In this document: piece by piece, positions 23,679-27,796 of the stretch
Position numbering within the stretch: the first letter of the stretch is position 1
Layout of the letters: every line of letters starts with the position of its first letter
Source: Sphingobacteriales bacterium
GTDB taxonomy: Bacteria; Bacteroidota; Bacteroidia; Chitinophagales; JADJOU01
Reading direction: 5' to 3'
Assembly: GCA_021297855.1 (NCBI GenBank)
Contig: JAJTHM010000010.1
Coordinates: 30,446 to 94,445 of the forward strand
DNA: 64,000 nt
Notes under the pieces: generated by a model
What the model saw: the letters and a program-made list of their open reading frames with translations, nothing else
The model's database searches: none
What the model was told of the DNA's origin: nothing
Translations under genes and position numbers: made by a program

Positions 23679-25484
23679 TTGAAATCATACCTGACCCTTC
23701 TCCGCCACGTTTTACCGCACAAAAAATTGCTCGGTTTTTTCATTCTTTTCAGTGTTTTGACTGTTATTTTTTCATTGGTCAGTTTAGTGATGCTTGTCCC
23801 CTTTCTAGAACTGCTGTTTGACAAAACACCGCTTGTTCTTGTAAAGCCAGACTTTAGTTTGTCCAAAACTTATTTTATAGATTCGTTCTATTATTTTCTT
23901 TCTACACAGATTCAGAATAATGGCAAAACAGCGGCACTTGCTTTTTTCTGTTGTGTGGTTTGTGTTGTTTTTTTACTGAAAAATTTATTTCGATATTTAG
24001 CCTTGTATGTCTTAGCTCCATTGAGGAATCATATGATCTATGACCTGCGAGATGCTATGTACCAGCGCTTGGTTCGACTGCCAATTTCGTTTTTCCAAAA
24101 GAATAGCAAGGGCGATATCATTACTAAATTCACCTCCGATTTGGGCGAAATAGAATACAGCATCATCAATACTTTGGAAACTTCTATCCAATCTCCTTTG
24201 AATATCTTTCTATTCTTAGCAGCCATGTTGACGATGAGCACGAAACTCACTCTTTTTGTCTTTGGCATGATACTCATCATGGCACTATTTATTGGACGAA
24301 TAGGTAAAAGCCTCAAAAAAGAAAGCAAGGAAGGAAAAGAAGTGACTGGCCGGTTGACATCAATTCTGGATGAAAGTATTTACGGTATAAAAATTATTCA
24401 GGCATTTTTTGCCCATAATTGGATTTATGCTAAGTTTAAAGAGCAAAATAAAAACTATTTTGACACCTACAATCGCATGTATCGCAAGCGAGACTTATCC
24501 TCTCCGTTAACCGAGTTTTTAGCTATCGGTGTAGTTTGCTTGGTCTTATGGTTTGGAGGACAAATTGTGCTCAATAATGAGGGACTCACTGCATCTACAT
24601 TTATTGCCTTTATGGTTGTATTTTCACAACTCATCCCTCCAGCCAAGAGCTTTTCATCGGCATTTTATGAAATCAAAAAAGGAATGGCTTCTTATGAAAG
24701 AATTCAAACTATTTTAGATGAAAACACGGTTGATTTTAATGAAGCAGGGCTTAAAAAAATAAATTTTGAATCCTCCCTTCAACTAGAAAATATTTCATTT
24801 CGTTATGAAAATTCGGAATCCGAGTCTGTAAAAAATTTAAGTTTCCACTTTGAAAAGGGAAAAAAATATGCCTTAGTAGGTCAGAGTGGTGCTGGCAAAA
24901 GCACGCTTATTGATTTGATTCTTGGGTTCTATCAACCCACTTCTGGCCATATAAAAATTGATGGGCTAGACATTCGAAAATTTTCGCTTGAATCCTATCG
25001 TGCTTTGTTTGGTTTAGTAACTCAAGAAGCTCTATTATTTAATGATACCGTAGATAATAATCTTTCCTTTGATCAACTCGACACAACTATGGCAAACCAA
25101 GCCTTAAAAATAGGCAATGCTACAGACTTTTCAAAACGATTAGGGAATCAACTTATAGGAGAACGCGGTGGCGTACTGAGTGGTGGAGAGAAACAGCGAT
25201 TGACCATAGCTCGTGTAGCCTATAGAAATCCAGAAATTGTTTTGCTAGATGAAGCCACTTCGGCACTCGATAGCCAGAATGAAGCTGAAGTTCAAAAAGC
25301 CTTGGATATTTTGTTAAAAAATAAAACGAGCATCATCATAGCGCATAGACTGAGTACGGTAAAAAATGCCGATTGCATTATTTTAATGAATCAGGGCGAA
25401 ATCTTAGCAACAGGAACACACGAGACGCTTTATGCCGAAAACACTAAGTATAAAAATATGGTGGACTTGCAGAGTTTGGGGTAA
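23679..25484 (+). CDS. ABC exporter, fused permease/ATPase (MsbA-like)
   Basis: Transmembrane domain plus GQSGAGKS, LSGGEKQR and LLDEATSALD. Confidence 0.9.
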   Translation: MKSYLTLLRHVLPHKKLLGFFILFSVLTVIFSLVSLVMLVPFLELLFDKTPLVLVKPDFSLSKTYFIDSFYYFLSTQIQNNGKTAALAFFCCVVCVVFLLKNLFRYLALYVLAPLRNHMIYDLRDAMYQRLVRLPISFFQKNSKGDIITKFTSDLGEIEYSIINTLETSIQSPLNIFLFLAAMLTMSTKLTLFVFGMILIMALFIGRIGKSLKKESKEGKEVTGRLTSILDESIYGIKIIQAFFAHNWIYAKFKEQNKNYFDTYNRMYRKRDLSSPLTEFLAIGVVCLVLWFGGQIVLNNEGLTASTFIAFMVVFSQLIPPAKSFSSAFYEIKKGMASYERIQTILDENTVDFNEAGLKKINFESSLQLENISFRYENSESESVKNLSFHFEKGKKYALVGQSGAGKSTLIDLILGFYQPTSGHIKIDGLDIRKFSLESYRALFGLVTQEALLFNDTVDNNLSFDQLDTTMANQALKIGNATDFSKRLGNQLIGERGGVLSGGEKQRLTIARVAYRNPEIVLLDEATSALDSQNEAEVQKALDILLKNKTSIIIAHRLSTVKNADCIILMNQGEILATGTHETLYAENTKYKNMVDLQSLG

Positions 25485-25635
25485 TTAAATGAGAGCAAAG
25501 AATATTTTTCTGATTCTAATTCTATTGGCTCTTGTCTTTGGAATTTATTTAGACTTCTCTTACAATTTCTCAGACCATCAATCCATATATAACGACATTA
25601 ATTTAAATTCAAAACTAGAATTCTGCATTTTTAAA

Positions 25636-25790
25636 CCCACATTACGCAATAGACTTTGACGAAGGAAAAGGATAGTGCGATAGGTGGTCTCGTTCAAAAA
25701 AACGAGACGTGATAGAGTTTTGGTCAGATATTCTAAAATATTGACCATAAAACTCTTATACGAATCCGCTTTTCTAATGCGGATTTTGGG
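25636..25790. mobile_element. Non-autonomous MITE-like insert 1 (155 bp between TTAAA direct repeats)
   Basis: TTAAA at 25631-25635 and 25791-25795. Imperfect terminal inverted repeats, 14/18 (ACCCACATTACGCAATAG at 25635-25652 vs reverse complement of 25774-25791). Internal hairpins; no coding capacity. Confidence 0.75.
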
Positions 25791-26019
25791 TTAAAAAAGC
25801 ACTAGTAGGTAAGAGAAAGCATTGCAAATACACTCGCTATATTTCCATCATAGATTTTACAAAACCTTCTACAGATAAGCGTTTCTATCTTTTAGATTTG
25901 AGAGAAAGGAAATTGCTTTTTCATTCCTATGTGGCGCATGGTAAAAATTCTGGCGAAAACTATGCTAGGCAATTTTCCAATAAAGAGGAATCTCTTATGA
26001 GCAGCTTAGGCTTTTATAA

Positions 26020-26141
26020 TACCGTAAGCGTATTAGTAATAGTCCAATGTCGCATGGCTCATTGCACTAAACAAATACAGCTACGGCATTTACCATAGCA
26101 AGGTTTTAAAATGGGTTGGACCATTTTAAAACCGCTATTGG
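26020..26141. mobile_element. Non-autonomous MITE/palindrome-like insert 2 (122 bp between TATAA direct repeats)
   Basis: TATAA at 26015-26019 and 26142-26146; ends read TACC...GGTA if the duplication is taken as TAA. Perfect 13-bp inverted repeat GGTTTTAAAATGG/CCATTTTAAAACC at 26102-26133. Confidence 0.72.
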
Positions 26142-26398
26142 TATAAGACAGGAAAAACTTATTATGGAAAGCATGGCTATTCGCTTAGATTGAAAGGATT
26201 ACAAGAAGGAGTTAATGACCAAGCAGAGAAGCGAGCTATTGTCATTCATGGAGCAGATTATGTCAGTAAAGAGTTTATTCAAAAACATGGACGTCTAGGT
26301 CGAAGCCATGGGTGCCCTGCACTGCCAAAGCATTTGGTCAAAGAGATTATAGATATAACAAAAGGCGGTAGTTGCCTGTATATATACTGTGAGAAAAA

Positions 26399-27796
26399 TT
26401 AAATAGAAAACTCTTGATGAATTTCAGGGATTTCTACAAAATCAAAGCCTACTTTTATCAACTTATTTTTAAAATTATTTTGAACTAGGTATTCGCCGTG
26501 TACTAGAAAAAATTTATCTACCTGTTTCGGATCTTGGCAGGATAGGTAGTGCAGCATATCTGAATAATCCCCATGAGCTGAAAATGACTTTATCTTTTTT
26601 ATCTGGGCTATTTTATTCATGTATTCGCCAAATATCTTGACCTTGGGATCCTCATTTAGCAGCCTAGCTCCTAGACTAAATGGCTCACAATATCCAACAA
26701 TGAGTATCGTATTTTTCTCTTGCTCGATATTATGGTAAATATGATGCTTTATTCTACCGAATTCGGCCATACCTGACGCCGAGATAATAATACAAGGACC
26801 TTTAAAATCATTTAGCGCTTGCGAATCTTTTCTTTCGCTGATATAGACTAGGTTTTTAAATCCAAATGGGTCTTCATCACCTTCCATCACTCCTAATATA
26901 TGCTTGTTATAACACTCCTTATGCTTTTTTGTTATTTCTGTAGCGGCTATAGAAAGAGGACTATCGACGAACACTCGTATCGGAGGAAGTTTCCCAGATA
27001 AATCCAATTTATTCAAGGCATAAACTATTTCTTGCGTTCTACCAACACTGAAAGCTGGGATAATAAGTTTGCCCTTATTTTTTACACACGTTTCCTGTAC
27101 AATATCATAAAACACTTGTTCATTTAAAGCTGCATCATCGTGCAATGAATCACCATAGGTACTTTCACAGATAATGATATCTGCTTGTGGGAATTTTTCT
27201 GGATTTTTCAACAGAGGGCTATTGTATCGCCCGATATCTCCTGTAAAGCAGATTTTTTTTGTTTTACCTTTATCTTCAATAGTTAGATTCACTGTACAGC
27301 TTCCCAAAATATGCCCTGCATCTGTATACAAGCAATGAACTCCTGGTATGACTTCGAATTGTTGATGTAATTTTCTGGTTACTAAAAGAGGTAAGGCTTG
27401 CTCTACATCTTTTAATGTGTACAAAGGCTTTACAAATTCCTTGCCAGTAGCCTCTCTTCTTTTATTAATAAATTTAGTATCCTCTTCTTGAATTTTGGCA
27501 CTGTCCTTCAATAAAATTTCTACCAGATCTGCGGTAGCAGGAGAACAATAGATTGGACCAGAGAAGCCCTCTTTGACTAGTCTTGGGATAAGCCCTGAAT
27601 GATCAATATGTGCATGAGATAAGACTAGTGCATCAATTTCCATTGGATTAAATCCAAAATGATTATTGAGTTGCTGCAACTCCTTTCCCCCCTGAAACAA
27701 CCCACAATCCAGAAGTACTTTTCTGTTATCCGAAAGGGTCAAAACGTGTTTACTACCTGTTACAGTTCTTGCTGCACCATGAAAGGATAATTTCAT
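26399..27796 (-). CDS. Metallo-beta-lactamase fold hydrolase of the beta-CASP RNA-processing family
   Basis: VTGSKH, LLDCGLFQG, SHAHIDHSG, AGHILGS, FTGDIG, CESTYG, PAFSVGRTQE and FSAHGD motifs. Confidence 0.92.
   Translation of the reverse strand: MKLSFHGAARTVTGSKHVLTLSDNRKVLLDCGLFQGGKELQQLNNHFGFNPMEIDALVLSHAHIDHSGLIPRLVKEGFSGPIYCSPATADLVEILLKDSAKIQEEDTKFINKRREATGKEFVKPLYTLKDVEQALPLLVTRKLHQQFEVIPGVHCLYTDAGHILGSCTVNLTIEDKGKTKKICFTGDIGRYNSPLLKNPEKFPQADIIICESTYGDSLHDDAALNEQVFYDIVQETCVKNKGKLIIPAFSVGRTQEIVYALNKLDLSGKLPPIRVFVDSPLSIAATEITKKHKECYNKHILGVMEGDEDPFGFKNLVYISERKDSQALNDFKGPCIIISASGMAEFGRIKHHIYHNIEQEKNTILIVGYCEPFSLGARLLNEDPKVKIFGEYMNKIAQIKKIKSFSAHGDYSDMLHYLSCQDPKQVDKFFLVHGEYLVQNNFKNKLIKVGFDFVEIPEIHQEFSI

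Follow-up and report, generated by a model that had tools for sequence, protein, structure and literature searches.

In the bypass of T4 gene 60, a stop codon stands right after the take-off codon, the gap is 50 nt, and the take-off and landing codons match. Rickettsia palindromic elements (RPEs), which also lie within ORFs, are in frame and are translated together with the host protein. IS5-family (IS1031-type) elements and the eukaryotic PIF/Harbinger-Tourist MITEs make 3-bp TNA/TWA target duplications. Prokaryotic MITEs are AT-rich, form stable stem-loops and are mostly intergenic, with occasional gene inactivation and clustering in pseudogenes (PMC10969869); the Chunjie MITE of Geobacter disrupts a phosphate-uptake operon, and MITEs are found in the mcy genes of Anabaena and, as SM MITEs, in pyrE of Sulfolobus (PMC10969869). 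[quoted passage not shown]

We examined the L,D-transpeptidase gene (ldt) at 25489-26402, a gene for a small cell-wall enzyme, in a window of 64,000 nucleotides, the whole stretch of DNA analysed, and compared it with its relatives. We consider it very likely that this locus is a recent insertional pseudogene that took two independent hits by MITEs from two families. The earlier note had already preferred the recent inactivation of a gene by two MITEs, and this reading is borne out by genome-wide copies, target duplications and unoccupied targets in relatives.

The interrupted gene and its restored frame

The coordinates of the gene segments and inserts are collected in Table 1. As the earlier note had claimed, removal of both inserts (25635-25794, 160 nt; 26020-26146, 127 nt) yields a single stop-free ORF of 627 nt encoding 208 amino acids. 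The restored protein matched YkuD_2 (Pfam, PF13645; E=3.9e-69) over residues 41-204 and profile positions 3-169 of 169, a full-length domain match that scored 231.8 bits against the curated cut-off of 27, and its catalytic His...Cys motif, HGADYV...GRSHGCPAL, is unbroken. In the DNA as it now stands, the three gene segments are each in a different reading frame, and the ORF that begins at the ATG at 25489 stops at 25657-25659, 23 nt inside the first insert, to give only 56 amino acids. Translation from the native start cannot reach the catalytic domain, as is the case in a pseudogene, and we infer from this sequence that ldt has probably lost its function.

Table 1. Positions of the ldt segments, the two inserted elements and their target-site duplications.
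Feature	Position	Strand	Description
ldt segment 1	25489..25634	+	Start codon, signal-peptide-like N-terminus, codons 1-48 plus 2 nt; from ORF list and orthologue alignment
ldt segment 2	25795..26019	+	Codons 49-123; frame shifted by +1 with respect to segment 1 as the DNA now stands
ldt segment 3	26147..26402	+	Codons 124-208 and stop; carries the catalytic His...Cys motif
Catalytic residues, segment 3	26247-26249; 26313-26315		His codon; Cys codon of SHGC
MITE-1	25635..25791	.	157-nt non-coding; imperfect terminal inverted repeats, four or five hairpins
MITE-1 target-site duplication, left	25632..25634	.	TAA; like triplets flank other young copies
MITE-1 target-site duplication, right	25792..25794	.	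TAA
MITE-2	26020..26143	.	124-nt non-coding; ends TACCGTAAGCG...CGCTATTGGTA, two long imperfect palindromes
MITE-2 target-site duplication, left	26017..26019	.	TAA
MITE-2 target-site duplication, right	26144..26146	.	TAA

The search of relatives for uninterrupted alleles, which the earlier note had proposed, turned up two syntenic orthologues that align with the restored gene without a gap (627 versus 627 nt). One, on the Logan contig L102, is 82% identical in nucleotides and 85% in amino acids; the other, in the same-genus genome G004, is 71% and 72% identical. Both are unoccupied at both insertion sites: L102 has a single TAA at each target position, and G004 has a TAA at site 2 and a TGA at site 1. 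We took the empty-site evidence from this coding-region comparison; intergenic alignments between G004 and the present genome (G000) are too divergent. In such divergent, poorly aligned intergenic DNA, G000 lacks an element at the loci orthologous to three MITE-2 insertions of G004.

The genome also has a YkuD_2 paralogue (at C63; E=3.9e-59) that is open across the catalytic domain, with an ambiguous start codon. No YkuD_2 match was found in 10 of 12 same-genus genomes, several of which are incomplete assemblies, and the family looks dispensable.

Two MITE families in one gene

Both inserts are classical MITEs, of two different families: they have terminal inverted repeats, matching target duplications that vary among copies, and dispersed copies of high identity, and at 157 nt and 124 nt they contain only short ORFs. 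The longest of these, 36 amino acids at 25684-25794, ends in the right-hand duplication of MITE-1. The flanking direct repeats had been described as 5 bp long, but the true repeats are 3-bp target-site duplications, with bases four and five matching by chance. Since insertion duplicated the 3-bp target, the ORF becomes whole again, to the base, when each element is deleted together with one duplicate (157+3 and 124+3 nt). The inserts are indeed hairpin-rich, as had been noted, and both fold far better than shuffled sequences (z=-7.45 for MITE-1 and z=-5.99 for MITE-2), with 0 of 200 shuffled controls as stable in either case.

The observation that the 64-kb window holds no other copies was correct for the window, but both inserts are multi-copy across the whole genome. 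Genome-wide copies with target duplications, named beforehand as the check that would favour a pseudogene over a switch, were found for both. Most of these further copies lie between genes or at their ends, and in four instances in this genome a pair of MITEs lies less than 1.5 kb apart.

MITE-1 ends in ACCCAC...TTGGGT, and its inverted termini (ACCCACATTACGC versus ACCCAAAATCCGC) match at 10 of 13 positions, an imperfect pairing that is nonetheless conserved across copies. There are about 12 copies in this genome, with 75-100% identity, and diverged copies in the same-genus genomes G003, G004, G006 and G009. The young copies have common termini and target duplications of TAA, TTA or TCA. The family is modular, such that internal hairpin modules are interchangeable between copies. 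A third family, about 149 nt in length, shares the ACCCACATTACGC terminus with MITE-1 and has TAA or TTA as its left flank.

The inverted termini of MITE-2 (TACCGTAAGCG versus TACCAATAGCG) match at 8 of 11 positions and are likewise imperfect and conserved across copies. We found 17 full copies in G000 together with fragments at contig ends (about 20 loci), at 94-100% identity, and one of these, C55, is the sole other MITE-2 copy that splits an ORF. In G000, each of the 17 full copies is flanked by matching 3-bp TAA/TTA triplets, and matching triplets (TAA, TTA, GAA or TGA) flank 18 of 20 copies in G004, so that 35 of 37 copies in the two genomes have matching, variable duplications. More than 20 MITE-2 copies, 98-100% identical, are present in G004 at sites other than those in G000, although the genes flanking them are just 74-77% identical between the two genomes. 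MITE-2 has clearly been active recently. It also occurs in lake, wastewater, activated-sludge and bioreactor metagenomes, and weak relatives of its second palindrome occur in further members of the genus. No MITE-2 match was found in plasmid and phage records, nor an exact MITE-2 23-mer in GTDB genome contigs or IMG/VR viral contigs, although these collections may mask near-identical records. The two inserts are previously undescribed sequence families, with no match in the Rfam, plasmid or phage databases.

Mobilisation of the elements and competing explanations

Many MITEs have been described without a partner in the same genome, and our searches of G000, G004 and G009 brought up no autonomous transposase bounded by the same ends. 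Matches to DDE_Tnp_1 (PF01609) and DDE_Tnp_1_2 (PF13586) were rejected as partners, their termini being unrelated, as was a multi-copy IS1182-like element (C1:1-1601) with the unrelated ends TAGGGCTTGCTGAA; a comparison of ends by BLAST yielded no partner. DDE_Tnp_4 (PF13359) was absent from G000, the one genome searched for it, and DDE_Tnp_1_3 (PF13612) was absent as well. Inverted terminus pairs 400-4000 bp apart and enclosing an ORF gave noise only, and the ORFs adjoining partial copies included no autonomous partner. The missing IS partner weakens the family assignment, not the status of the inserts as MITEs. We infer from the duplication pattern alone that the mobilising enzyme is a DDE transposase that makes 3-bp duplications, IS5-like or similar.

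In the scheme we favour, a transposase supplied in trans would have inserted each non-autonomous element by a cut-and-paste or copy-and-paste reaction, and each insertion would have duplicated a 3-bp TNA/TWA target, here TAA both times. In the presumed order of events, the first hit would have cut the protein short at 48 native residues and left the gene selectively neutral, and the second would then have been cost-free. The remainder of the gene would be clean since both insertions are young; further mutations are not yet expected because both still match sister copies at 100% identity. By our own estimate, two hits within one 627-nt gene have a probability of roughly 0.04-0.08 under uniform random insertion, and we ascribe the double hit either to selection that relaxed once the first hit had occurred or to local clustering.

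We considered whether a RAYT (Y1 tyrosine transposase), and not a DDE enzyme, might have moved the inserts, which would then be REP/REPIN-like palindromes rather than MITEs, based on the two long palindromes of MITE-2, the second with its weak relatives in the genus, and on the presence in the genome of several Y1_Tnp genes that are flanked by short palindromic or tandem repeats. However, Y1/HUH elements (IS200/IS605, RAYTs) insert without target duplication, which does not fit the variable matching triplets at nearly all MITE-2 copies, and the sequence that any Y1 gene locus has in common with either MITE amounts to about 14 nt at most. The ACCCAC terminus beside one Y1 gene (C65) belongs to a separate family-3 MITE inserted upstream. 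The Y1/RAYT genes were rejected as mobilisers, being unrelated in sequence to the inserts and incompatible with the target duplications, and we regard this explanation as very unlikely.

It is similarly improbable that the MITEs both move between species, mobilised by an unseen transposase that itself moves horizontally, and occasionally have the ldt knock-out reversed through precise excision by that enzyme, as a rare, conditional switch resembling phase variation. This joint reading takes as its starting point the 98-100% identity of MITE-2 across species, with no matching transposase in either genome.

A simpler switch at the DNA level, in which precise excision of both MITEs in a subpopulation or under some condition restores ldt, is less probable again. 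The 3-bp duplications make exact restoration formally possible, and MITE-2 has moved recently, but two independent precise excisions would be needed in a genome that has no transposase partner. Moreover, all four occupied junctions were crossed by contigs from eight freshwater metagenome runs (2019-2025, at least seven studies), and none of the contigs from those runs contained an empty-site joint, although Logan contigs drop rare variants. Nor did the junctions branch in the unitigs, which extend 26 nt into each element. With only occupied junctions in these runs, the excision model raised in the earlier note is unsupported. Exact empty-site 24-mers were also absent from JGI metagenome contigs, in a search that had no positive control and is weak, and a 3% sample of the raw-read runs X53-X55 contained no reads from this organism. 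Among 5.8 billion sequences, the closest uninterrupted protein is 85% identical, and none lies above that.

Removal at the RNA level, such that the inserts are spliced out as introns (self-splicing or protein-assisted) or bypassed by the ribosome and the full enzyme is made, is in our view extremely unlikely. Both inserts are highly structured, their ends pair in a way that would draw the flanks together, and matched codons flank each one; but a transposon accounts for both features, the end pairing through its terminal inverted repeats and the matched codons through its target duplication. Thus, the matched take-off and landing codons reported previously are present, but are a mere by-product of the target duplication and lend no support to bypassing. 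The splicing model finds no support either: a cmscan of 25000-27000 against Rfam yielded no group I or II intron and no ribozyme even at E<=10, only chance snoRNA and miRNA matches below gathering scores. Nearly all other copies are intergenic, where splicing has no role. For bypassing specifically, the take-off codon AAA (25633-25635) is followed by CCC, not by a stop, and the ribosome would have to clear 160 and 127 nt, in agreement with the earlier remark that this arrangement departs from that of T4 gene 60. The RNA runs with any word matches contained MITE-2 from other organisms, not the ldt gene.

The chance that the repeats were misplaced into an intact gene during assembly or binning is practically negligible: the draft has 134 contigs, several of which end within these repeats, but independent Logan assemblies of the eight runs join the gene to each element end, with unitigs that connect unique gene sequence to the elements over 25300-25660, 25766-26045 and 26117-26600.

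On the reading of two MITE insertions, the locus shows a gene very shortly after insertions inactivated it, and both families, their duplications and the unoccupied sites of the ancestor are defined. For annotation, ldt is to be treated as a pseudogene, and there are three new MITE families to mask in this freshwater Bacteroidota genus. The locus also marks very recent transposon activity and a probable spread of MITEs across species. It calls for no new mechanism; any transposon that duplicates its target would be expected to leave a footprint that allows such clean restoration.

Comparison with known systems

The locus shares with T4 gene 60 and with group I and II introns an interrupted ORF, a structured insert and flanks that join cleanly. 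Unlike T4 gene 60, it has no take-off stop and its gaps are 2.5 to 3 times longer; unlike the introns, it has no covariance-model match and bears the hallmarks of transposons instead. The palindromic repeats within an ORF recall RPEs, but at 160 and 127 nt the inserts are not multiples of three, and a stop follows after 23 nt. The interchangeable hairpin modules of MITE-1 and the clustering of MITE pairs are like those of BOX, RUP, SPRITE and BrickBuilt, although we found no sequence relationship between those repeats and MITE-1 or MITE-2. With IS5-family and PIF/Harbinger-Tourist elements, the inserts have in common the 3-bp duplication, here with a strong preference for TAA/TTA; they differ from the IS5 family in that the three genomes we checked contain no IS5-like transposase whose ends match. 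The gene-inactivating prokaryotic MITEs resemble these inserts in being small and non-coding, with terminal inverted repeats, short target duplications and strongly folding transcripts, and in their dozens of copies, which are mostly intergenic and occasionally in a gene. What sets this locus apart from them, besides the fruitless search for an autonomous partner, is the presence of two different, previously undescribed families in one 627-nt gene, in an uncultured freshwater Bacteroidota host.

A transpeptidase gene split by two repeated elements

An earlier note read this L,D-transpeptidase gene (ldt) most simply as recently inactivated by two MITEs, a reading borne out by genome-wide copies of both inserts with target duplications. 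We consider it very probable that ldt was inactivated by two MITEs mobilised in trans, each of which would have inserted with a 3-bp target duplication. As first claimed, deletion of the inserts restored the ORF exactly, yielding on translation a stop-free 627 nt and 208 aa, with an intact His/Cys motif (HGADYV...GRSHGCPAL). Pfam found the catalytic domain of a YkuD_2 L,D-transpeptidase in full, covering profile positions 3-169 of 169 (E=3.9e-69), and a weaker match to YkuD. In the present DNA, reading from the ATG at 25489 ends at 25659, 23 nt inside insert 1, and each of the three gene segments is in a frame of its own.

Coordinates of the elements and loci discussed (plain positions, window; C-numbers, contigs of the source genome)
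Feature	Position	Length (nt)	Ends or remarks
Interrupted ldt gene	25489-26402		
Insert 1 (MITE-1)	25635-25791	157	ACCCACATTACGC...GCGGATTTTGGGT
Insert 2 (MITE-2)	26020-26143	124	TACCGTAAGCG...CGCTATTGGTA
Deletions restoring ldt	25635-25794; 26020-26146	160; 127	
Junction unitigs	25300-25660; ~25766-26045; 26117-26600		Logan, eight runs
MITE-1 hairpin swaps, same position as in window copy	C46:17623-17768; C50:22276-22437; C85:8383-8568		GGTCTCGTTC-A7-GAGACG to GGGATTAACCCC; CCGCTTTTCTAATGCGG to CCGTCCCGTATGTACGGGACGG
Third-family copies	C6:29000-29148; C8:10533; C95:4140; C42:15867; C130:27493; C55:8276; C5:1860; C67:14994	~149	
MITE-2 in split gene	C55:3576-3699		extracted locus L025, 1501-1632
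MITE-2-rich contig	C133:1-8229		
IS1182/IS5-like element	C1:1-1601		L101; ends TAGGGCTTGCTGAA
Y1 (HUH) transposase genes	C65:6980-7691; C42:4406-4750; C48:12927-13271; C130:12779-13123; C57:419-757		all but C65: L104, L106

Both inserts fold almost wholly into hairpins, as the sequence had suggested, and are far more stable than dinucleotide shuffles (-60.8 kcal/mol, z=-7.45, for insert 1; -46.6 kcal/mol, z=-5.99, for insert 2); their end-to-end pairing is due to terminal inverted repeats plus the duplication. Each is multi-copy across the source genome (3.1 Mb, 134 contigs). MITE-2 is present in 17 full copies, each exactly 124 nt (94-100% identity), besides contig-end fragments, and since all 17 carry a matching flanking triplet (TAA or TTA), the 127 nt to be deleted are the element plus one target duplication. 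Younger MITE-1 copies have matching TAA, TTA or TCA on both sides, and therefore 157+3 = 160 nt. Exact restoration of the ORF is the expected footprint of such transposition. The 5-bp flanking direct repeats described earlier comprise these 3-bp duplications and further bases that match by chance.

The MITE-1 family (~12 loci, 75-100% identity) is built of modules: after position ~28, certain copies have an additional 23-nt hairpin or ~57-nt module, and in some copies single hairpins are exchanged for different ones. These swaps keep the structure and change the sequence, which suggests that the stem-loops as such are important for the element. A third family (~12 copies, 84-100% identity) starts with the MITE-1 terminus, preceded by TAA or TTA, and differs from MITE-1 in its internal hairpins. 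The two may form a superfamily with common transposase-binding ends, served by one transposase. The MITE families here appear to be undescribed.

The interrupted allele and its uninterrupted relatives

In eight freshwater metagenome runs, dated 2019-2025 and drawn from at least seven studies, Logan unitigs connect unique ldt sequence to every element end, and such junction-spanning unitigs in eight independent runs rule out an assembly artefact. The unitigs end not at the junctions but where 31-mers turn fully repetitive; assembly thus yielded no alternative allele, and the double insertion is the only one assembled in every run examined. No insert-skipping joint was found in Logan contigs of these runs, although contigs may miss rare excision events. 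A search of JGI metagenome contigs for exact empty-site 24-mers gave none, a weak negative given the lack of a positive control. Of 5.8 billion clustered proteins, none was an intact ldt product of >85% identity. In the 3% sampled of raw-read runs belonging to one of these studies, this organism had no reads, and ldt was covered by no RNA run.

The earlier note also allowed for splicing of the inserts or ribosome bypassing, with matched take-off and landing codons. The codons are indeed present, but are a trivial outcome of target duplication rather than a bypass signal. Both alternatives lack any positive signal: there was no Rfam match for splicing or a ribozyme, no stop stands at take-off, and the same elements lie mostly in intergenic DNA.

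The double MITE insertion is set against uninterrupted orthologues. In the same-genus genome G004, ldt is syntenic, with the same two neighbours, an ABC-transporter gene and a convergent beta-CASP/MBL gene, and its 627-nt CDS aligns gapless with the restored gene (71% nt, 72% aa identity); its site 1 reads TGA and its site 2 TAA. A protein search led to a closer orthologue, P0001 (85% aa), carried by Logan contigs L102 and L103; its gene is again syntenic, has 627 nt and aligns without gaps (82% nt identity), and L102 has an empty TAA at both target positions. From these empty, gapless, syntenic orthologues, we infer that the uninterrupted gene is ancestral and the insertions lineage-specific. 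Synonymous to non-synonymous differences from L102 were 7:6, 18:7 and 34:19 in segments 1-3, an excess that reflects the long history preceding the insertions. The clean remainder of the gene is uninformative on selection, because the inserts show no differences from sister copies.

The gene looks dispensable. A paralogue lies on C63, with an open YkuD_2 domain and an ambiguous start codon, and a YkuD_2 match is missing from 10 of 12 same-genus genomes, several of which are incomplete assemblies. As judged from sequence, the locus appears to be an ordinary pseudogene of recent origin that was hit twice.

Candidate mobilising enzymes

The 3-bp TNA/TWA duplication presumably points to a DDE transposase of IS5/IS1031 or Harbinger type, which we take as a lead only. 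We found no autonomous partner for either MITE; DDE_Tnp_4 (searched in the source genome only) and DDE_Tnp_1_3 were absent. The termini of the DDE_Tnp_1 genes and of a multi-copy IS1182-like element are unrelated to the MITEs. The latter element (508-aa open frame, DDE_Tnp_1_2 domain) lies at six or more contig ends and is probably behind many assembly breaks. Y1/RAYT-like genes were likewise rejected, as their sequence is unrelated and their mechanism, which yields no target duplications, is incompatible. Short palindromes or tandem repeats of 99-269 nt flank these diverged, single-copy genes, which look like RAYT/REP-type loci; one has a third-family MITE inserted just upstream.

Spread and clustering of the elements

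G004 carries >20 MITE-2 copies 98-100% identical to those of the source genome, with 3-bp duplications (TAA, TTA, GAA, TGA) at 18 of 20, whereas MITE-2-flanking genes are only 74-77% identical (orthologous genes about 71-77% nt) and insertion flanks match at 67-83%. The G004 loci (L081-L100) are non-orthologous sites, and at three, source-genome DNA aligns across the insertion point with the element missing. MITE-2 words or the same 124-mer occur in lake, wastewater, activated-sludge and bioreactor metagenomes, and sludge RNA-seq contigs carry MITE-2 with other flanks. MITE-2 is thus a recently active element that has probably spread between species; near-identical copies in diverged species, a mildly interesting feature, suggest that this non-autonomous element has recently moved horizontally. 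MITE-1, at 68-91% identity in four same-genus genomes (G003, G004, G006, G009), is older and genus-wide, yet the window insertion is also young, since it is 100% identical to two other source-genome copies over >90 nt.

Computational excision of the other MITE-2 copies gave one plausible split gene, on C55, the rest being intergenic or a few codons from gene ends. The C-terminus of the restored C55 ORF (201 aa) is Crp/Fnr-like, and the ORF has a cNMP-binding match below threshold (E=2.5e-4). C133, an 8.2-kb contig with murA and a toxin-antitoxin-like pair, is a local hot spot with four MITE-2 copies, one at the contig end.

The earlier note saw no other insert copies in the 64 kb; genome-wide, however, both are repeated, and MITE pairs within 1.5 kb occur on four contigs (C27, which holds the window at 30446-94445, C31, C36 and C133). 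MITE clustering, pseudogenes included, is known in other bacteria (PMC10969869). Since pairs cluster both here and there, a second MITE in an already dead gene is unremarkable.
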